A stretch of DNA of 63,047 nt, filler included, from Basidiobolus ranarum (Eukaryota): assembly GCA_040143965.1 (NCBI GenBank). It is 47 parts of 47 records of this genome, joined end to end, with 100 filler letters (N's around TTAATTAATTAA, not from the genome) between each part and the next. Parts side by side here need not be neighbours in the genome. Positions count along the whole stretch, not along the records: positions 59,130 to 60,369 come from JASJQH010012742.1; 46 more parts are not named here. One strand, given 5' to 3'. This document shows positions 2,700-63,047 of the stretch, piece after piece (the stretch's first letter is position 1; each line of letters opens with the position of its first letter). A program made the translations under genes and the position numbers. Under the pieces are notes generated by a model. It searched no databases. It was not told where the DNA came from and was given only the letters and a program-made list of their open reading frames with translations.

Positions 2700-3317
2700 T
2701 CCTCTTGCTAAATAAGATATTAATTCGATTACTACTAGTAAAGGTACTAAACCTAAAGGAGTTCCTGCTGGTATGAAGTAGCTAAAGAATGCTAATTTAT
2801 GTCTTTGTAGACCTAAAATAGTTACTCCTATTAAAATAGCTATACTAAAACTAAATGTTAATGCCATATGAGAAGTAGGAGTAAAGCTATAAGGAACCAT
2901 TCCTAATAAATTTGAGAATAGAATAAAGTTAAATAAAGCAAATATAAATGGTAAGTATTGCTCATTTACTGGACCGTTTCCTATTTGATCTCTTACTAAT
3001 GAATGTACTGAGCTATAAGCTGATTCTTGAAAGATTGAGCTTTTACTTGCTAATACTTTTCTTTGGCTAGCAGTAAAATAAGCTATAGCTAAAAAGATTG
3101 AACTTGCTATAATTATTTGTAAACCTATGTTAGTTATTACCGATATCTCTGAAGATAATCCAAAGATAGGTGCAGATATTGTTAATAAATCGTAAATTTC
3201 AAATTGCTCTAATGGATTTAAAATGGGTGCACTCACCGGTGCGATATTCATGGGGCTTCCGAAGGCTACGCTTGGAAATAAAGGGGCCATCATAGAAGAA
3301 TGTAGGTTCAATTGCAT
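2700..3317 (-). CDS. atp6: Mitochondrial-type ATP synthase subunit a, 3'-truncated
   Basis: NPLEQF, NLLGMVPYSFTPTSH, PAGTPLGLVPLLVVIELISYLAR; AT-rich codons; exact start uncertain. Confidence 0.95.
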
Positions 3318-3374
3318 TTTTAGGTTTGGTTGCGGGGCAACTTTCGTTAATTAACTTTCCTTTTTTTATTCTTG

Positions 3375-3948
3375 ATTGGGTGGTGTGCCGGCCCCCCTGC
3401 TTGGGGGGCCCCCGCAGCCCGTGCTTCGCCGGACTAGGGCCCCCGGGGGCCCCTTCGCCCAACCCCCCCCCCAAAGGGGGGGGCGGGGGGGGGGTGGGCC
3501 CCCCCCCGGGGGGCCCCCCCCCCCCCCCGAGCAGTGCTTCGCAGGGGAGAGTGACTTTAAAAAACGCCTACCCGCCGAAGGGGGTCCCCTCTTTTCTCTT
3601 TAAATGCCAATGGTGCGCTATCCGATCCCCGGCTTTACCTGACTGCCCGGGGGAGGAGGGGGGCCTTTCCCCCCTCCGTAAGAGCCCCACACCCGCCCCC
3701 CCCCCTGCCCCCCCCCCTCCGGGGAAGCCCTGGATGGGTGCCCCCACCTCCCCCCTAATCCCTACGGACTCCAAAGGGGAAGCACGGGGGGGGGGGCGGG
3801 TGTGGCCCCTCCCCGATCCCTTCCCCCCCCCGACCCGTTTGCCCTTTTACCCCCAACGCCCCCCCTTCAAGGGGGGGGGCGTTGCCCGGGGAAGGATCAG
3901 GGTCGGGGGCCCCCCCCCCGAAGGGCGGGGGGGGGGCCGACGGGGCGT
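3375..3948. repeat. GC-cluster / hairpin-element array upstream of atp6
   Basis: Paired G and C runs, e.g. palindrome AGGGCCCCCGGGGGCCCT at 3436-3453; recurrent CTTCG/CGAAG. Confidence 0.75.
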
Positions 3949-4048: not shown

Positions 4049-5006
4049 ATTTGAATCCAAGAACATCTGATTCAAGCCATTTTTGGTCATGTTAAGATTT
4101 GTCTCCATTGGGATAGATACTGGATTACATTCTTCTGTTTTGAATTTCTCTAGTATTTCTAGGATATACTTAGAGTGGTTTAAAGTTATTGTTTTGGTAG
4201 TTCTATTTTTCTTAATTTGGATTCCAAGACAGTATGTCAGTTCACCTAGTTCAGTCATTTTGAATTTGGCACATAAGCTGGATTTGGTTTTCTCCAAAGG
4301 CTTCAAGTCATTGGTTGCTATATTAAGGTCATCTACATATAAGGTTAATAAAACTGGGTTTGTCTTATCTGGCCTGAAGTAGATACTATAGTCAGTATTA
4401 CTCTTTTGGAATTTGAGTGTTTCTAAAAAACATCTATCTTGCTATTCCAAGCTCTTGGAGATTGTTTTAAGCAATAGAGTTTTCACAAGAGTCTGCAAAC
4501 TTTTTCAGGGTCTTCTGGGACCACAAATCCATCTGGCTGGTCCATATAGATCTTCTCAGCAAGCTCACTATTCAAAAAGGCAGTTTTAACACCTATTTGA
4601 TTTATAATAAACTGATATTTAGCTGAAATTGCTAAATCAATCTAATTGTATTAAGCTTTGCTACAGAAGCAAAAGTTTCTGTATAATCTATTACTGGTGT
4701 TTGGGAATAGCCTTTGGCTACTAGTCTAGCCTTGTGCCTTTCTATATTGCCATCAGAGTTGTATTTAACTTTAAACACCCATTGCAGCCAAAGGATTTTC
4801 TATCATCAGGTTAGTTGGTTAAAATCCAAGTTTGATTATCAATCAAAGCCTGGTACTCATCAGCCATTGCAGATGTCCAAAATTTCATGTGAAGGCCATT
4901 TAGGGCCTCTTTTACAGTCAGGGATTCATGTATTTGAGCTGTGCAGGCATAGGTCTGCTTTTGGTACTCATTGATATAGTAATCAGGGCTATTTCTGATT
5001 TGATTT
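4049..5006 (-). mobile_element. Ty1/copia RT fragment
   Basis: LYVDDL, KFKMTELGELTYCLGIQI, KARLVAKGY on minus strand. Confidence 0.9.
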
Positions 5007-5297
5007 TGTTGGATAATTAATCTTTAATCAACTTCTTAGTTAACTTTAGATATGATACATATATAAGAAACAGAAAGCAACGTATCTATAGCCCCTATAT
5101 TCTAAATAGGTATATCTCTATATCTATATAACAAGTATGTCTTATTACCCCCACTTATCTATTATGTTTTATTACACAAACTCCTCAATATCTCAAACAA
5201 TTGATTTACTTTTCTACTATATAAGGCACCATATACTCTTAAGAATAAACTAACTAAAACACACTATCATAAGTTGCTTCTAATACTCAAAGTCTAC
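5007..5297 (+). mobile_element. Copia LTR family B
   Basis: TGTTGGATAATTAATCTTT..., same as the LTR after the PPT at 62823. Confidence 0.85.
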
Positions 5298-9439: not shown

Positions 9440-10575
9440 GTGCTTGACAGTTATTGCTTCTTCAACCATGGTAGAAGCTTCATCTCTTTTGACTGGCCGT
9501 GACCGTGGTTGCATGGCAGTACGTGTTGGAGCAAGTTGTCTACCTTGTGGTTTGTGTTTGGCAGTTCTTGCCTCTTCAACCACGGTAGAAGCTTCATCTC
9601 TTTTGACTGGCCATGGCCGGGATCACATGGCAGTATGTGTTGGAGTGAGTCTTCTACCTTGTGGTTGTGTTCTGTGGTTCTTGCTTCTTCAACCATAGTG
9701 GAAGCTTCATCTCTTTTGACTGGCCATTGCCATGGTTGCATTCCAGTACATGTTGGAGCAAGTTGTATACCTTGAGGCTTGTGTTTGGCAGTTCTTGCCT
9801 CTTCAACCACGGTAGAAGCTTCATCTCTTTTGACTGGCTGCCATGATTTCTGTTGCATGGCAGAATGCATTGGAGCATATTGTCTACCTCAAGGTTTGTG
9901 TTTGACTGTTGTGGCTTCTTCAAGCTCAGTAAGAGCTTCACTATCTCTTGCAAACACTTGTTGTCTTGGTCTTGTGAGGGTACGCATAGTAGTGGATTGC
10001 TGTCTTAGTAGATTGCTCTCAGGTGTCAGATCTTCATCCAACAAAGTGGAAGGTTCAATAATTCTTGCGGTTGGCCTTTGTTGCTGTTGCGTGGTTGTAT
10101 GTGTTAAACCGCTCCTTGGAGCTGACTCTTCTCCAGATGTAAAAAGCTCACTGGTTGGTTTGGTTGAATCAGGTAAATTGCGCACTACAATGCATGAATA
10201 TGCAGGCCATCCTCTTTCTGGTTCTTCATTGACTGCTTGCTCTTCATCAAAAACGGGAGAAACATCACGGACTCTTCCAAGCTGGCATTGCTGTCAATGA
10301 GTACTACTAGCTGATGAACCAACTTTTTGGGCTCTTGCCCTTGTTGAAGGTGTTACCTCAATTCTAGTGGTGAGTTGTGTAGATTCTTCTTGTGAAATAG
10401 ATACCTCATCAGGAGTCTCTTTGATTTGGAGTGATCTAGTACATCTCTGCAATGGTCTAGATGGCTCCAATTTGCCTTCACAAATATCTTCTGATTCAAT
10501 AAATTGTCTTGCTTTTCTCTTTACACCTCTGTTGATTACTCTTGCCATAGTGTCCAGAAATGTTGTTTTGAACTC
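9440..10575 (-). repeat. Multicopy coding-like sequence with about 114-bp (38-aa) tandem repeats, degenerate
   Basis: Anchor GTAGAAGCTT-like at 9471, 9585, 9698, 9812, 9929; homologous to 13479-14330. Confidence 0.85.
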
Positions 10576-10686
10576 CTTATTGACCAGCTTCTGAACGACT
10601 TATTGAATGCTGAGAAGTATGCTGAAAGACGTGGTGCTGCCTATGGCTTAGCGGGTGCCGTTAAGGGATGTGGTATCGCATCTATC
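10570..10686 (+). CDS. GCN1: GCN1 HEAT-repeat fragment
   Basis: LLNAEKYAERRGAAYGLAGAVKGCGI matches the conserved GCN1 motif ER(R/K)GAAYGLAGxVKG. Confidence 0.8.
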
Positions 10687-12132: not shown

Positions 12133-12490
12133 ATAACCTGATAAAAGTGTTTAGGGGATTTGAAAGTGTTTTGGACAAGATTGGGATTTGTGAATTGGAC
12201 ATTTAAGTTTTATTGATTTGAATATGTCCTATTTATAGTTTAATACAAAAATAGGACTATTGGACATGCTTAGATCATAACAATCATGGCTGTTAAGCAT
12301 TAGTGAAAATTTGAGATGATTTGGAGAAGTTTTGAGAACATGGTGAAAATTGGTAAAAGTGACCTTATTGATATTTATATCAACTAGAGCTATAAACACA
12401 TATTTTAAATGACAGAATTGAGTGCTAAGTAATCAGGATATTAATAAACTAACTACTAAATAATGAGTTGCTATTTACCTAATTTCAACA
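12133..12490 (-). mobile_element. Copia LTR family F (12139-12490) followed by start of PBS GGTTAT
   Basis: TGTTGAAATT...CTTTTATCA on minus strand; second copy at 32299-32581. Confidence 0.75.
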
Positions 12491-12522
12491 GTGCACTGTG
12501 TTAAGGAGACTCCAGAGTATAT

Positions 12523-13378
12523 TATTGAAGTTTATTGTCTTTACAATATTTGTTATCTCTATCTTTATGCACCCAACTAATTCATATATAACATACAAGT
12601 TAGTTAACATTACTTAGTCAAATACCACTTAACTGCAAATTGGAACATATACTGTATATATATGTGAATAATGTGAGAATTAGCAATTCCTTATTGAAAT
12701 TTCAAACTCATCCAAATTGCCCCAAAGATAGCTCACTTTACTCCAACAGATGTTCTAAACATAACCCCAGTGTTGGTTTTCTGTATTTCTACCCAAATGT
12801 TTAAATGTTTTATTTCTGGACAATAGTAATTATCTCACAAAGCTATACACCACTCCACTTTTCTAAAGTTCCTCCAAACAGCCCATATTTTCCCAATTGG
12901 TTATGAGCCCTGTGTTCTAACCTTTACAGAATGACAGAAACCACTACCACCACTTTTACTAACTCTAGTGTTGAAAAGCCTGATGGAGAAAATTACAATT
13001 TCTGGAAGTTCAAGATGAAAATTATGCTGGAAGACATGGAGCTTTGGAATGTAGTCTCTGGGGATGAAAACAAACCTTCAGACCCTTCTTTTTGGAAGTT
13101 TATAAGGAAATAGATTAGAAGACCTTTAATGACATTTGACAAAGCTTGAAAGATTCACAACTTGTGCATACTCAATATGCAAAGACTTCCCATTAAGCTT
13201 GGACTACATAAGAAGAGTGTTATGAAGCAACAAGCCTTGCTAATAGACTCTTTCTCACACAAAAATACTTCAATATAAAGATGGAAAAGTCTGAAAGCAT
13301 GGTTACTCATATTGCAAATGTGTGATCTTTGGCAAAACAACTGGAAAATATTGGTGCAACTTTACAGGAAGAAGATGT
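12523..13378 (+). mobile_element. Copia family C 5' LTR, PBS TGGTTATGAGCCC (12898-12910) and gag pseudogene from 12931
   Basis: Copia-type PBS; gag EKPDGENYNFWKFKM, homologous to 16616-17414. Confidence 0.9.
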
Positions 13379-13478: not shown

Positions 13479-14724
13479 ATGTGTTGGAGCAAGTCGTATA
13501 CCTTGAGGTTTGCGTTTGGCAGTTCTTGCCTCTTCAACCACGGTAGAAGCTTCATCACTTTTGGCTGGGTGCCGTGACCTCTGTTTCATGGCGGAACGTG
13601 TCAAAGCATATTGTCTACCTTGAGGTTCATGTTCAACTATTGTGGCTTCTTCAAGCTCAGTAAGAGCTTTACTATCTCTCTCAAACACCTGTTGTCTTGG
13701 TCTTGTGGGGGTACATGTTGTAACAGATTGCTGTCTTAGTAGATTGCTCTCAGGTGTCAGATCTTCATCCAACAAAGTGGAAGGTTCAATAATTCTTGCG
13801 GTTGGCCTTTGTTGCTGTTGCGCAGTTGTACGTATTAAACCAGTATGTCTTTCTGGTGGCACGCTCCTTGGAGCTGACTCTTCTCCAGATGTAAAAAGCT
13901 CACTGGTTGGTTTGGTTGAATCAGGTAAATTGTGCGCTACAATGCATGAGAATGTGGGCTGTCCTCTTTCTGGTTCTTCATCAACTGCTTGCTCTTCATC
14001 AAAAACGGGAGAAACATCACGGACTCTTCCAAGCTGGCATTGCTGTCAATGTGTACTACTAGCTGATGAACCAACTTGTTGGGCTCTTGCCCTTGTTGGA
14101 GGTGTTACCTCAATTCTAGTGGTGAGTTGTGTAGATTCTTCTTGTGAAATAGATACCTTGTTGGGAGTCTCTTTGATTGGGGTGATCTAGTATGTCTCTG
14201 CCCCAGTCTAGGCTGCTCCAATTTGCCTTTGGGAATATCTTCTGATTCAATAAATTGTCTTGCTTTTCTCTTTACACCTCTGTTGATTACTCTTGCCATA
14301 GTGTCCTGAAATGTTGTTTTGAACTCTGCAACCTCCATCAACAGTTGCTGCAAAGTCTCATTGAGCAGTGGTAGATATCTATTTAGAACATCTTTTGTCT
14401 CTAAAGTTGAGGCCGCAATGGTCACTTCCAGTCCATACAAGCAAAAACACAATTGGAATTGTGTCTTTGCGGACTCAAAATTAAAATTCCTATTTCTCAA
14501 TTCACGCTTTCTATCCTCATGAGTCTTATTGTATATTTTCTTGCAGACTTCTGAAGGCATGAAGATATAGTATTCTCTCCAAAGCAGAGTTAAAAGTTGC
14601 TTCCACTTTTGTCTAATGCCCCCTTCCCCAGCTTCTGTCAAGTTTATCAATAACTCCCATATATCCAAGCAAGAATTCAAAGTGGATACGTGGGCATCAG
14701 TAAATTCATTAGGAATGTGCTGCT
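13479..14724 (-). repeat. Second copy of the 38-aa-repeat ORF family, including its upstream helical region
   Basis: High identity to 9760-10575; 191-aa open stretch 14105-14680. Confidence 0.8.
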
Positions 14725-20104: not shown

Positions 20105-21024
20105 NNNNNNNNNNNNNNNNNNNNNNNNNNNNNNNNNNNNNNNNNNNNTTAATTAATTAANNNNNNNNNNNNNNNNNNNNNNNNNNNNNNNNNNNNNNNN
20201 NNNNAAGGAGAACAAACTATCATTTGATAATCTGGAATCAAGCAGCTATGTGAGTAGTGAAACATTAGGCAACACTGGAAATGCACAAATTTATACCAGA
20301 AATCCTGATAATTACTCTGAGTGTACTGAAAATTTGGAAACAGCTTCTGGAAATCAGCATTTTATCTCTGCCAATGAAGAATATGGTAGTCAGAAAAAGG
20401 ATATTTTTCCAGCCAATGAGGAATCAGGAAGTTGGGCTCAGAAACATGCTAATAATTTTTCACCAATGATGTACCAAAGATATATCCTACTCTCAATATG
20501 GCTGATATTGGATACAATCAACTATTGGAAGTATGTAATTAACAACAAAATTCAGGCAATCAGGTCTCAGAAATCCTATCAAGTGGAAATTAGAAACATC
20601 CTGTAAGTGAAATATCTGAACATTCTACCAAGGACTTTGGATGTCTCAAATCAAAGCATGAAATCAACAGATTAAATTCAGAAAATAGATGGAATATATC
20701 TGTACATATAGCATTTTCTGAACCAGAAAATTTGACACAAGCTCTGAAATCTGATGATGCAACAGAATGGAGAAAAGCCACTGATGATGAATTTCACTCC
20801 CTAATCAAGAATAACACATGGATCCTTGTGGACTTATCTATTGGAAGAAAAAATATTGATAATCAATGGATGCTGAAACTGAAAATTAACTTCAATGGAT
20901 CTAATAACCAGTGCAAAGCAAGATTAGTAGTTAAAGACTATGCTCAAAAATATGGCATTGACTATTATGAAACATTTTCTCTGATTGCTAAGTTTACCTT
21001 AATCAGAGCAATCCTAGCTATTGC

Positions 21025-21306
21025 TGTTGAAAGTCTGGTGACTTGTGGTACAAGCAGTAATTCCCAAAGAGGAAAATATGGAGTATGGTTAATACATCTG
21101 AGCACAAAGTCTAAGGCCAATCAGTTGCTTGTATCACTGAAATGCCAAAGTACCATTCATTGACAGACTAGGTTAAGGTTCCCTAGCAATATAGGCATAG
21201 TATACAAGGACTGGTAGCTCAGTGGTTAGAGCACCTTGCTAGAGTGAAGGAGGCCCCAGGTTCAAATCCTGGCAAGACCAATATTTCTCCCTAAATAATT
21301 TCAATA
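21025..21306 (+). mobile_element. Solo LTR family E (282 bp) with TSD ATTGC
   Basis: TGTTGAAA...TTTCAATA, flanked by ATTGC at 21020-21024 and 21307-21311. Confidence 0.92.
21208..21280 (+). ncRNA. tRNA-derived sequence inside LTR E (pseudo-tRNA with Pol III A and B boxes)
   Basis: 73-nt cloverleaf spacing; D stem GCTC/GAGC and T stem CCAGG/CCTGG perfect; A box TAGCTCAGTGG, B box GGTTCAAATCC; two acceptor-stem mismatches. Confidence 0.9.
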
Positions 21307-53379: not shown

Positions 53380-53667
53380 CTAAACGCCTAATTCTTCAAG
53401 ATCTTTAAGCATATGATTGGGACCAGAGATTTTGTAGCTTGATGGTCCAGGTTCCTCGATGTTGAGAACTTTGACAACTCCATCATCGACATACATACTG
53501 TATCGCAAGGATCTCACTCCCAATCCAGGCATTACCTGAGTCAATCCAATCCTTTTGTGGAATGAGCAGTCACCATCAGATATAACCTCTACTTTATCCT
53601 TGATGTCATAGTTTTGTGACCAAGCGCGCATCACAAATGGATCATTTACAGCGGTACAGTAGATGGC
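53380..53667 (-). CDS. Prx5/AHP1-type peroxiredoxin, C-terminus
   Basis: AVNDPFVMRAW, ISDG, LGVRSLRYSMYVDDGVVKVLNIE. Confidence 0.92.
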   Translation of the reverse strand, partial: AIYCTAVNDPFVMRAWSQNYDIKDKVEVISDGDCSFHKRIGLTQVMPGLGVRSLRYSMYVDDGVVKVLNIEEPGPSSYKISGPNHMLKDLEELGV

Positions 53668-59029: not shown

Positions 59030-59367
59030 NNNNNNNNNNNNNNNNNNNNNNNNNNNNNNNNNNNNNNNNNNNNTTAATTAATTAANNNNNNNNNNNNNNN
59101 NNNNNNNNNNNNNNNNNNNNNNNNNNNNNCCTGTAGTATTGCTTTCTTATTTTTAATCAACGCTTTTCACCAGCTGATCAATAGTATTATTTTGAAGCAC
59201 TTGTTTCATTTGCGTACCACTAACTTGAATATTTCATCACATTGCGGAAATCCGAAATCCGAAACACTAAAATCTCATTAAAGGAATGGCCTATTTATTT
59301 AAAGTGACAAGATATCAAAGATAATATATAAGATATTAAATACAGATAATGTTTGGTTAATGCATTG

Positions 59368-60369
59368 TCATCCATTATCATCATCTGAACTAGAATAGAT
59401 AATCCTACGCTTGAGGCGTGTGGGAATGATTCTTCCTATAGGGTCGATATTGTCATTACGTCGACTATTTGGCGATGATACGGTGGTTTCTAATGGCCCA
59501 TAATGAAGAACATTTCTCTGATAATGTTCGATTGCATTAGCGGATAGGGTCTCTTGAGTTTCAGGTGCGTATATCTGTCTAGCAGTATGGGGGTGGTGAT
59601 TCATAGCCGCGGCATACTCAGCAACCAACCCAGATGCTATTCCATAACTAGCACACCAACGACGAAACATTCTTTGATCAAATACGCGTTTAGACTTGGA
59701 AAATACTTCTTTCATAGCAGTTATGAATAATTTCCCGGTTCTCTGCGGATCGATTCCATCCCTCCCATTTAAACTAGTAAAAAAATAAGGATGGGCTTGA
59801 TATACCCAGGCTGGACGAAGCATACTAATCCAATAAACAATATACTTGGTTAGCTCACTTGGCATAGGTAAGTAGTTCCCCCCTGGGCGTTTGTCTTCGT
59901 TTAGGTTGAGTATAAATATATCTTCTTTTGGATCATACATTACGTTTCGCTCACCAGAAAGTCTGGTGTCTTTCAATGCATGCTGTTGTGATGAATACAA
60001 TAACATGAACGCTAGTGGCTTGCATCTTCTACTGGGGGCAGATATTCGTATTGCTGTATATAATAGGCGTTGATACCTTTCAGACAGTTTTCGAAGAAAC
60101 TTTAATGGCTTTTCACACTGATAAGTGGCGCTGAGGTGCTTGGTTAATTCACTCACTGGAGGTGTTATGAAACTCCACTTGCCTAAGGCGTTTTGCTGCT
60201 GATAATTATAACTTTCGTTTTCGATAAGTTCGTAAGTCAGGCTCTTTGAAGGTAAAACAGCTTCCAATATTTTCTGCATGTGCTGTAGTAATCCGGAAAA
60301 TAGCTCACTCACTTCCTGAACTGTTGGCTCCACTTCGACAGGTTTACATTCAATTCGTGTTCGTTCTCT
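59368..60369 (-). CDS. Tyrosine-recombinase-like protein, 5'-truncated, intronless
   Basis: 333 open codons; APSRR...EDKR...LRP...YFF..LNG...RMFRR...AAAMNHHPHTARQIY gives R-K-xxxR-H-Y order. Confidence 0.75.
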   Translation of the reverse strand, partial: RERTRIECKPVEVEPTVQEVSELFSGLLQHMQKILEAVLPSKSLTYELIENESYNYQQQNALGKWSFITPPVSELTKHLSATYQCEKPLKFLRKLSERYQRLLYTAIRISAPSRRCKPLAFMLLYSSQQHALKDTRLSGERNVMYDPKEDIFILNLNEDKRPGGNYLPMPSELTKYIVYWISMLRPAWVYQAHPYFFTSLNGRDGIDPQRTGKLFITAMKEVFSKSKRVFDQRMFRRWCASYGIASGLVAEYAAAMNHHPHTARQIYAPETQETLSANAIEHYQRNVLHYGPLETTVSSPNSRRNDNIDPIGRIIPTRLKRRIIYSSSDDDNG

Positions 60370-60469
60370 NNNNNNNNNNNNNNNNNNNNNNNNNNNNNNN
60401 NNNNNNNNNNNNNTTAATTAATTAANNNNNNNNNNNNNNNNNNNNNNNNNNNNNNNNNNNNNNNNNNNN

Positions 60470-61708
60470 AATGGCAGGAGTGTCACCAATACATACAATG
60501 ATATCAGCTTTAATAAAATATTCACCCATCTGAACCCCATTAGATAACCATTCAAATTTGGCAATCAAAGGTTCCAAGATGTTATCTATAAGTACTGGTG
60601 ATTTAGGTCCAGATATGATAGATACTATCAGAATATTAGGACTCTTACACTGTTCAGAAGGAGAAAGATTCAAGTGAATTAAAATTATTGGCCAGCAAGC
60701 CTTTCCAATGGTAAATTTACTTAATAAGAAGCCATCCAGAGCCAATGCAAACACATGATCATGTATGTTCTCAAAGAAACCATGACTTTTCAGATTCTGG
60801 TAGTGATATCTATCATGTACATTAGTAATACCATTATCCTTAAGGTGAGTAAGTTAGTATTGGATAAATGATCTACATTTGCGTGATTTCATCAAAACTT
60901 TAAGATGGAGAATCAATGAAATGTAAGCCAAATCCCAAACAAAAATAATACAATTTGATATGGATTGGATCCACCCTCCAAAACAGCAAAACCATCAGAG
61001 AACCATCACAATATTGGTGGCTTGCATTCTGCCAGGGATTTTGATGGTGTGACGGCAGTTTCTTGATGGTATTTAGATAGTATTTATACATGTTAAAATA
61101 TGATTCCTCAAAATTGGCATGCATTATTCAATATCCAGCAATTTTTGCAAAAATCTAATTTTTGAATTACAAATTATTGGGTTTACTGCTGTAGAAATTT
61201 GAATTAATATGAATGCCTGTATCAAGATATTTTAGGCTTTCTATTCTAGCCATAATGCGAATCAAAAAATACCAGAATCTCACTGTGTTTAGTCTCTGCA
61301 TATGCACAGACTTGACTGCTCATACATAACTCAACAACATCAATATGCTTTACCAGCAAACTAAAGGTAGAAAAATTGATAAACATCTGAAATCTTGAAT
61401 TGCACTGACACTTGGCAAATAGCTGACTCATGCTACTGTTCACAATGAGAATAAGCTCTTAAATTTTGGAAATTTCTGTAATGAATTCAGCCAATATATC
61501 CCTGACTTGAAGTCAACAAATATCCTGCCACAAATAGATGTGTCATTGCTTGAATAGATTACCCCATGGCTAATACAACAATACTATTGGGAAACTATGG
61601 GCTGTTTGGAGGAACTTTAGAAAAGTGGAGTTGTGAATAGCTTTGTGAGAAAATTATTTATTGTCCAGAAATAAAGCATTTATACATTTGGTGGAAATAC
61701 AGAAAACT
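60470..61708 (-). mobile_element. CMC transposase (Tnp2-like domain) interrupted by a second CMC right end (60934-61584), then LTR C (from 61585)
   Basis: LALDGF...CWPIILIHLNLSP...ISGPK...LEPLI. Confidence 0.85.
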
Positions 61709-61808: not shown

Positions 61809-63047
61809 TTAATTGCTCTCATGTTGATGATATCATAATAGTTAGTAATTGCTCAAATCTGATGAAACAAACTAAAACCTGGCTATCTACCAAGTTTGAT
61901 ATGCAAGATCTTGGATCACTAGCATATTGTCTTGGAATGCAGATACATCAAAATTCCACTATTGGAACACTCCATATTATACAAGAAAAATATATTGGAG
62001 ATGTTTTAAAAAGATTTAATATGTCAGAATGTAAAACATCTTTAAATCCACTGTGTATGCTGAAACTCACTAAGGATATGGAACCAAAGACCTCTGAAGA
62101 TATTGAAATCATGGAACATATTTCTTACTGTAGTGCAGTTGGAAGTCTCATATATGTAACAACTGGTACTAGGCCTGATATTGCTACAGCAATAAGTATA
62201 GTAAGCATGTATATAGAGAATCCTGCAATGGAACATTGAATAGCTGTGAAACAGATAATATGCTATCTGAAAGGAACAATATATCATGGAATTCAATTTA
62301 GTAAGCAGTACAACATGTCACTTATTTTGGGAGGATATGCTGATGCAGACTGGCCTAATGATACCAAAGACCATAAGTCCAGAACTGGATATGTGTTCAA
62401 GCTAGCAGGTGGGCCAATAAGCTGGATTAGTAAGAAACAACAAACAGTTGCATTATCAACTACAGAAGCAGAATATATGGCAAGCTCTATGGCTGTTCAA
62501 GAAGCTATATGGCTAAGGAGTTATCTCAAGGAACTAGGATATGATCAAGTTAATCCTACCCCAATATATCAAGATAATATTAATTGTATTCAGATCACCA
62601 AAAATCCTGAGCATCACTCAAGGATGAAGCATATTGACATAAGACATCATTTTATACAAGAGAAATTCAAGACAAAGAAGTGAACTTTATTTATTGTATT
62701 ACTGAAAACATGCTTGCAGATATACTAACAAAACCACTTAAAACTTCAAGCTTTGAGAAGTTAAGAGCAGGCATAGGCATTAGTGAATATAAGCACAATG
62801 CTGAACAAGAATTAAGGGAAGGTGTTGGATAATTAATCTTTATTCAAAATCTTAGTTGACTTTAGTTATGATACATATATCAGAAACAGAAAGGAATGTA
62901 TCTATAGTCCCTATATTCTAAATAGGAATATCTCTGTATCTATATAACAAGTATGTCTTATTACCCCCACTTATCTATTATATCTTATTACACAAACTCC
63001 TGAATATCTCAAACAATTGATTTACTTTTCTACTATATAAATCACCA
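61809..63047 (+). mobile_element. Copia RT-RNase H, PPT and LTR B (from 62823)
   Basis: GYADADW, VALSTTEAEY, KHIDIRHHF, PPT TTAAGGGAAGG. Confidence 0.95.

Follow-up and report, generated by a model that had tools for sequence, protein, structure and literature searches.

The known eukaryotic elements with a tyrosine recombinase are few, comprise Cryptons, DIRS/Ngaro elements, Starships, and some viral integrases, and have been found mainly with a handful of sequence profiles. Crypton DNA transposons were reportedly described by Goodwin et al. in 2003. We analyzed a 63,047-nucleotide stretch of DNA (the window) from the fungus Basidiobolus ranarum (NCBI GenBank assembly GCA_040143965.1), in which an open reading frame (ORF) on the minus strand, at positions 59371–60369, encodes the C-terminal part of a protein that is probably the highly diverged, DNA-cutting tyrosine recombinase of a mobile element about which little is known. 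The favored explanation, with a probability of about 0.5, is that the ORF encodes the recombinase of a DNA element that resembles Cryptons, is low in copy number, has not been described before, and resides in a fungus related to Basidiobolus.

Cryptons (types F, S, A, and I, as presented in passages of PMC3212892) are eukaryotic elements, present also in fungi, that are dispersed and low in copy number, and the ORF belongs to a protein family with the same properties. Both encode a single large protein of which the tyrosine recombinase is the sole recognizable enzyme part, both are devoid of a reverse transcriptase, and the same mechanism, circular excision followed by site-specific reintegration, is presumed for both. 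The ORF family differs from Cryptons in that it is not detectably similar to any recombinase profile and is missing the histidine of the R-H-R-Y tetrad. A GCR1_C domain behind the recombinase is a feature of CryptonF elements according to an excerpt of PMC3212892, whereas the ORF family has no GCR1_C match at E ≤ 10, and its protein ends approximately 65–66 residues past Tyr267, the candidate nucleophile. The domain DUF3504 (PF12012), which marks CryptonA and Glomhopper elements in an excerpt of PMC13465315, is absent at this threshold from all six family members compared with Pfam, which are the ORF and the B. meristosporus proteins P0002 to P0006 listed below.

The Captains of Starships, as far as parts of PMC10104507 describe them, resemble the ORF protein in being large fungal tyrosine recombinases that are encoded by DNA elements and are weakly similar to the classical enzymes. 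Their domain, DUF3435 in the same source, is nevertheless absent from six of the six members at E ≤ 10. According to an excerpt of 10.1101/2024.08.30.610507, Starships have been described from Pezizomycotina. Neither cargo nor an element structure can be recognized around the ORF. The ORF might also be the recombinase frame of a DIRS- or Ngaro-type retrotransposon, since such elements are present in early-diverging fungi (excerpts of PMC3783388 and PMC10386755). However, the recombinases of these elements are detected by the profile PF00589 (excerpt of PMC3783388), which matches none of the six family members at E ≤ 10. Furthermore, the full-length relatives of the ORF are stand-alone proteins of 828–846 amino acids without reverse transcriptase or RNase H, and there is no reverse transcriptase ORF on the contig, which makes a retrotransposon origin very improbable. 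Judged by these profile comparisons, the ORF family appears not to belong to any named Crypton, Starship, DIRS/Ngaro, or DUF3504 family.

The ORF and its immediate surroundings have the following organization:

59130–60369, no strand assigned: ORF-bearing contig of 1240 bp, with artificial linkers on either side (59030–59129 and 60370–60469)
59371–60369, minus strand: ORF of 333 open codons, the C-terminal part of a protein of approximately 830–846 amino acids; the 5' end is the contig edge
59368–59370, minus strand: TGA, the natural stop codon; the relative P0005 ends at the same position and likewise has the acidic tail
59130–59367, minus strand: 3' flank of 238 bp, without a notable ORF and without a repeat common to other contigs

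The frame is open from 59371 to 60369, as an earlier note on this DNA had stated in reporting at least 333 uninterrupted codons. A stop-free run of this length has a chance of approximately 1e-10, estimated from the base composition of the contig. The ORF is the longest on any of the 47 contigs of the window, followed by one of 265 codons. The 16 additional codons in the ORF listing are N's of the linker and are excluded from the 333. The same note had called the ORF intact, which is not the case: position 60369 is the final base of the contig, after which the artificial linker begins, and the frame runs off this edge. The first in-frame ATG is located at 60277–60279 and would give a 303-residue version of the protein. 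This is not the true start, because the similarity to the longer relatives P0003, P0004, P0005, and P0006 begins at codons 1–3 of the ORF. Since the similarity reaches the first codon, the ORF lacks approximately 500 N-terminal residues. The missing 5' part was sought on the other contigs of the window and was not found there. At the opposite end, the ORF terminates together with P0005, and the family alignment has the common tail RRI[I/V]Y..S[D/E]DD, which identifies the stop codon as the natural one. Except for small indels, the ORF is colinear with P0005 and P0006, so the description of the gene as intronless holds for its visible part and does not extend beyond it. The ORF is a real gene that was truncated at its 5' end by the assembly, and it encodes the final 40% of a protein of approximately 840 residues. 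In the 3' flank there are two AATAAA/ATTAAA motifs, 69 and 211 nucleotides past the stop codon.

The search for relatives provides the grounds for regarding the family as mobile. Comparison of the ORF with 1.84 billion representative proteins using phmmer gave two matches, word-indexed searches returned only the ORF itself and three hypothetical proteins of Basidiobolus meristosporus CBS 931.73, and a cluster look-up added P0005, P0006, and P0007. The only relatives among the 1.84 billion representatives are six B. meristosporus gene models, which form two subfamilies:

P0005: 846 amino acids, full-length, 61% identical to the ORF across the aligned part
P0006: 828 amino acids, full-length, member of the same 90% cluster as P0004
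P0004 (K493DRAFT_309533): 737 amino acids, 56% identical across 78% of the query
P0002: 142 amino acids, member of the same 90% cluster as P0005, 68–70% identical to the ORF
P0003: 497 amino acids, partial, 51–52% identical to the ORF
P0007: 189 amino acids, partial

P0003 and P0004 are 87% identical to each other, and P0002 and P0004 54%. The six locus tags, K493DRAFT_309012, K493DRAFT_297313, K493DRAFT_309533, K493DRAFT_295033, K493DRAFT_295579, and K493DRAFT_304833, are located on scaffolds of six different sizes, ranging from 13.8 to 345 kb. Each subfamily contains near-identical members on separate scaffolds, and shortened or tail-less copies coexist with full-length copies whose catalytic set is intact. 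P0004 leaves the family alignment past the equivalent of residue 251, for its last 25 residues, and is devoid of His258 and Tyr267, both of which are kept by P0006. The loss of the P0004 tail reflects either decay of the copy or an error in the gene model.

None of the other collections contained a confirmed relative. The pattern matches in IMG/VR contigs (6 and 259 in two scans), in JGI metagenome contigs (88), and in 185,579 prokaryote genomes (175) were all left unconfirmed (0 in each case), and tblastn against 50,697 phage records gave a single match, with E = 7, on a primase. As judged from these collections, the ORF belongs to a small family that has so far been encountered in B. meristosporus and the organism of the window and nowhere else. 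A published description of the family was not found in the literature on Basidiobolus with tyrosine recombinases or Cryptons. The reading as a mobile element is favored because there are six gene models in two subfamilies on six B. meristosporus scaffolds, with shortened copies among them, and because the family is absent elsewhere in the 1.84 billion representatives. The earlier suggestion of an undescribed tyrosine-recombinase element is accordingly the explanation that we prefer, on the basis of the dispersed multi-copy pattern in B. meristosporus and of nothing within the window.

The protein likely adopts a tyrosine-recombinase fold, as suggested by a third-party structure model and by residue conservation and with the support of no profile method. 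The ESM Atlas has its own model of the 303-residue version of the protein, with a predicted template-modeling score of 0.66 and a predicted local distance difference test score (pLDDT) of 0.63. The 30 Atlas structures nearest to it belong to eight family sets, of which five are PF00589 clusters and three are unnamed eukaryotic clusters. In the PF00589 rows, 177–193 residues are aligned, with template-modeling scores of 0.47–0.54 when normalized by the query and 0.47–0.72 by the target. The extent of these alignments, together with the low-confidence order of secondary structure elements, delimits a domain:

59494–60111, minus strand: putative catalytic domain, residues approximately 87–292; Atlas rows align query residues 87–290 and 31–292 to PF00589 clusters

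The language-model features of the Atlas give a concordant picture. The top score is 0.96, a level that shuffled proteins reach approximately once in 100 according to the Atlas tool, with 171–173 shared features, and 11 of the 30 matches are to PF00589, whereas 19 are unnamed. The structure and feature searches count as one source, and the tool grades both as leads. Our own models could not be used. AlphaFold2 prediction of the whole ORF from a four-sequence alignment reached a pLDDT of 44.8, and that of residues 60–295 from three sequences a pLDDT of 40.3. A Foldseek search of the PDB with the former model gave no match at E ≤ 0.001, the best being translin at 0.25, and the model is too poor for this result to be meaningful. 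The same applies to the VIA-align comparison of the first AlphaFold2 model. The Atlas model points to a recombinase, with PF00589 clusters as five of its eight rows, and the Foldseek search that the earlier note had proposed found no match with a model of insufficient quality.

The candidate active site comprises five residues, and a sixth position where a catalytic histidine would be expected:

59962–59964, minus strand: Arg136 (in DTRLSGE), candidate first catalytic arginine, invariant in the ORF, P0004, P0005, and P0006
59890–59892, minus strand: Lys160 (in EDKRPGG), candidate beta-hairpin lysine and general acid, invariant in five of the five sequences that cover it
59668–59670, minus strand: position 234, at the place of the HxxR histidine; methionine in the ORF, glutamate in P0002 and P0005, aspartate in P0004 and P0006
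59659–59661, minus strand: Arg237 (in F[R/C/Q]RWC, which is FRRWC in the ORF), candidate second catalytic arginine
59596–59598, minus strand: His258 (in AAMNHHP), candidate third-box histidine, invariant in the ORF, P0002, P0005, and P0006
59569–59571, minus strand: Tyr267 (in TARQIYAP), candidate nucleophile tyrosine, invariant in the ORF, P0002, P0005, and P0006

Arg136, Lys160, Arg237, His258, and Tyr267 do not vary among the family members whose sequences extend across them. Lys160 is positioned between the predicted strands E151–156 and E166–170 of a low-confidence model. The five residues are separated by 24, 77, 21, and 9 positions, as compared to 24, 75, 23, and 9 in XerD. The distance from Arg136 to Lys160 equals that from Arg148 to Lys172 of XerD (24), and the span from the first arginine to the tyrosine is 131 in both proteins (Arg136–Tyr267 and Arg148–Tyr279). 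The residues had previously been noted to occur in the order typical of tyrosine recombinases. The loose order R..K..R..H..Y, however, is no better than chance, as it is present in 1914 of 2000 shuffles of the ORF protein. The XerD spacing with a tolerance of ±2, a test chosen post hoc once the sequence had been seen, is rare: it has exactly one match in the ORF, from Arg136 to Tyr267, and of the 2000 shuffled sequences only 39 have any.

An unconstrained global alignment to XerD (z-score of 3.0) places His258 on His270 and Tyr267 on Tyr279, with the other three residues one to three positions off. The block around His258 and Tyr267, AMNHHPHTARQIY, aligns without gaps to LGHSDLSTTQIY of XerD, and the local tyrosine motif QIY is common to the ORF and XerC/XerD. 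XerD, XerC, FimB, FimE, Cre, and lambda Int served as reference recombinases for the hhalign, hidden Markov model (HMM), and pairwise tests. Pairwise alignments gave z-scores of 3.0–3.9 for four of the six, and the alignment to FimE matched Arg136 and Lys160 exactly. The XerD-like spacing of the R-K-R-H-Y residues, and the naming of PF00589 proteins as structural neighbors of the Atlas model, liken the ORF protein to the bacterial and phage recombinases of the XerC/XerD, Cre, and FimB/E types. It differs from them in that PF00589 does not match it at E ≤ 10, that the hhalign probability is 1–4.5%, and that the histidine of the HxxR box is replaced by methionine, glutamate, or aspartate. Moreover, the ORF protein is eukaryotic, confined to one fungal lineage, and approximately 840 residues long, with a variable N-terminus of about 330 residues.

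All residue strings quoted in the earlier note are present in the ORF, and most of the roles it gave them agree with the invariant residues and the XerD-like spacing: the lysine of EDKR, the RMFRR segment at the place of the HxxR box without its histidine, the histidine of MNH, and the tyrosine of ARQIY. The first arginine, however, had been assigned to PSRR, which is probably wrong. Arg114 and Arg115 of this motif are 45–46 residues away from Lys160, whereas Arg136 fits at 24 and is the residue selected by the spacing test. Arg114 and Arg115 are likewise invariant and are probably non-catalytic arginines preceding the first box. Another register, produced by hhalign and MAFFT, takes HTAR as the HxxR box and Tyr290 as the nucleophile. 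It was rejected because His258 and Tyr267 never vary, whereas Tyr290 is replaced by arginine in P0005 and by serine in P0006, and His281 by tyrosine in P0005.

A considerable set of results speaks against a recombinase. No recombinase family was found at E ≤ 10 by Pfam for the ORF, P0002, P0003, P0004, P0005, or P0006 (0 of 6), by NCBIfam for three family members (0 of 3), or by PHROGs for one (0 of 1). A sequence search of the PDB with the ORF found no recombinase, and profile searches of the PDB with two family alignments yielded nothing beyond a design construct, at E = 0.5, and a universal stress protein, at E = 2.1. Alignment of the family to the six reference recombinases by hhalign gave probabilities of 4.5% and 1.0%, in a different register. 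An HMM of the six references scored 0.9 bits on the ORF, and 11 of 500 shuffles scored as well or better. Among the pairwise alignments, FimB (z-score of 1.0, positions within 0–3 residues) and lambda Int (z-score of -0.3) were not significant, and those to XerC, Cre, and FimE place the C-terminal residues in another register. The post hoc choice of the spacing test belongs here as well, as does the absence of the HxxR histidine (Met, Glu, or Asp at position 234), which leaves the R-H-R-Y tetrad incomplete and could mean that the protein is inactive.

These negative tests, together with the unusable structure models and the frequency of the loose motif order among the shuffles, would be expected of a lineage-specific orphan protein that is not a recombinase and carries the motifs by chance. 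This explanation is possible but doubtful, as the structure and feature neighbors in the Atlas are consistently PF00589, the tight XerD-like spacing is rare among shuffles and selects residues that are invariant in the family, and the His258/Tyr267 block aligns to XerD without gaps. The description of the ORF as tyrosine-recombinase-like is moderately supported: the Atlas PF00589 neighbors and the five invariant residues favor it, and every sequence and profile test stands on the other side.

The composition of the ORF has to be read in the light of how the window is built. The sequence TTAATTAA occurs 93 times in the window, compared to 4.5 expected, with a period of approximately 1340–1349 bp, and direct reading of the sequence shows each site to be the center of a block N44-TTAATTAATTAA-N44. 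Cutting at the 46 linker blocks yields 47 pieces of 1239–1250 bp, which are ordered from the longest to the shortest. The window consists of short, mutually unrelated contigs that are strung together by a linker with stops in six frames, and there are no physical neighbors within it. Any inference drawn from adjoining sequence in the 47-contig window is invalid and needs re-reading.

The contig with the ORF has an observed-to-expected CpG ratio of 0.89, with 37 CpG dinucleotides within the ORF, and is the only one with a value near 0.9. By comparison, 27 of the 47 contigs have ratios below 0.15 and a pooled value of 0.05, and their TpG and CpA ratios are approximately 1.3. Examples are the contigs at 4049–5297, 12133–13378, and 61809–63047. 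The Pfam matches on low-CpG contigs are fragments of Copia gag, Copia reverse transcriptase, or Tnp2 transposase. The pattern of depletion looks like the result of cytosine methylation and deamination that acted over a long time and only on repeats. Ten contigs have ratios of at least 0.5, including that of the ORF; the other nine pool to 0.66 at a G+C content of 0.388. One of the nine looks genic and serves as an example of such a compartment:

53383–53667, minus strand: fragment of a Redoxin-domain ORF (E = 1.4e-9), on a CpG-retaining contig with a ratio of 0.74

The ORF is not decayed, as indicated by its CpG ratio and by the natural stop codon kept in common with P0005. The other 46 contigs are connected by 126 pairwise repeat matches, whereas the ORF contig has no DNA in common with any of them. 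The retention of CpG reported earlier is confirmed by the comparison with the 27 depleted contigs, and the statement that the ORF is unlike the surrounding transposons is correct for composition and cannot be upheld for neighborhood in a concatenation of contigs.

The retention of CpG and the uniqueness within the window are equally compatible with a host gene, which counts against mobility, and the multi-copy pattern in B. meristosporus could stem from segmental duplication or polyploidy. The ORF might, in that case, belong to a domesticated host gene family that is derived from a recombinase and is no longer a mobile element. Its CpG ratio resembles that of the nine other CpG-retaining contigs, one of which has the Redoxin ORF, and not that of the depleted repeats. 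The contig is unique in the window, the frame is intact, the C-terminus is conserved, and the HxxR histidine has been lost; host genes derived from Cryptons are known, according to an excerpt of PMC3212892. Domestication is, however, rather unlikely. Apart from the lost histidine, the catalytic set of five residues, with the tyrosine among them, does not vary within the family, in contrast to domesticated DUF3504 genes, from which such residues have for the most part disappeared (as described in part of PMC3212892). In B. meristosporus, near-identical copies on different scaffolds are accompanied by shortened ones of 142, 189, and 497 amino acids and by the 737-residue model without the His258/Tyr267 tail. 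In addition, no other fungus among the 1.84 billion representatives has a member of the family.

The exceptional CpG ratio of the contig and its uniqueness in the window could also be ascribed to contamination. Nevertheless, its G+C content (0.39) matches the 0.388 of the other CpG-retaining contigs, its only relatives come from a fungus, in which they occupy large nuclear scaffolds of up to 345 kb, and the collections searched contained no relative from bacteria, archaea, viruses, or metagenomes. A contaminant origin is thus extremely improbable.

The earlier note considered the ORF to be more like the viral type of recombinase, and one feature of the family is consistent with the integrase of an endogenous polinton-like virus, virophage, or other double-stranded DNA virus. 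The Atlas feature cluster nearest to P0004, with a score of 0.95, is unnamed and 71% viral, Preplasmiviricota being the commonest group, which likens the family to the tyrosine recombinases of polinton-like viruses and Sputnik-type virophages (treated in parts of PMC12220804). The viral enzymes, too, are poorly covered by Pfam, as the viral cluster of P0004 has no common family, and polinton-like viruses of algae often have a tyrosine recombinase according to an excerpt of PMC12220804. The clusters nearest to the ORF itself are unnamed eukaryotic ones, from Haptophyta and Chlorophyta. The similarity of P0004 to the viral cluster is a lead only, since they share 145 features, whereas members of the same family usually share at least 170 according to the tool. 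Furthermore, the ORF-family protein is twice as long as the viral ones, with 830–846 amino acids and a long N-terminal extension as compared to the 356 amino acids of the representative of the viral cluster, and no relative was confirmed in the two IMG/VR scans or in the JGI metagenomes. A viral integrase is therefore unlikely, and the earlier comparison is retained as a weak lead from the P0004 cluster that the IMG/VR contigs do not back. Slightly less likely again is the particular case of an integrase, with an R-K-R-H-Y site lacking the HxxR histidine, from an endogenous polinton-like or virophage-like double-stranded DNA virus in a lineage of terrestrial fungi without zoospores, that of Basidiobolus and its relatives. 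If this were true, the family would found a new clade of recombinases and represent the first footprint of such a virus on this branch of the fungal phylogeny.

If the ORF is the recombinase of a Crypton-like element, as we prefer, the complete protein would begin with approximately 330 weakly conserved, basic or low-complexity residues. These would be followed by a conserved helical region and a long linker, and the C-terminal catalytic domain would have the fold of tyrosine recombinases and type IB topoisomerases. In the active site, Arg136 and Arg237 may grip the scissile phosphate, Lys160 on the beta-hairpin may act as the general acid, His258 may assist, and Tyr267 would attack the DNA, giving a 3'-phosphotyrosyl intermediate. 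The element may move as proposed for Cryptons, by circular excision and site-specific reintegration. Whereas the ORF, its truncation, its relatives, the conservation of its residues, and its CpG retention were observed directly, the fold is predicted from the third-party model, and catalysis and mobility are deduced.

The family, which is found in one enigmatic fungal lineage, escapes all of the profiles by which eukaryotic tyrosine-recombinase elements are detected and retains five catalytic residues in the absence of the HxxR histidine. Should the family be mobile, it would constitute a new branch of eukaryotic recombinase elements, and surveys based on profiles would undercount such elements.

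Several other contigs of the window have features of their own. An exact look-up of eight other ORFs of the window in the protein collection gave no match. The contig that follows that of the ORF begins with a fragment of a Tnp2-type transposase (Transposase_21, E = 6.5e-10) at 60470–60853 on the minus strand, which is unrelated to the ORF. Comparison with Rfam gave a single match in the window, a tRNA (52.9 bits) at 21208–21280 on the plus strand, which is located directly past an ORF at 20594–21160 that bears a Copia reverse transcriptase, on a contig with a CpG ratio of 0.0. The contig at 2700–3948 has a G+C content of 0.52, compared to 0.29–0.44 elsewhere in the window, a CpG ratio of 0.55, and a 217-codon ORF at 3296–3946 on the plus strand without a Pfam match; this contig could be of foreign origin or represent a special compartment. 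The contigs at 9440–10686 and 13479–14724, with G+C contents of 0.42–0.44, each contain an ORF of 174–205 codons without a Pfam match and are 89% identical across 846 bp, which suggests that they belong to an unclassified repeat family.

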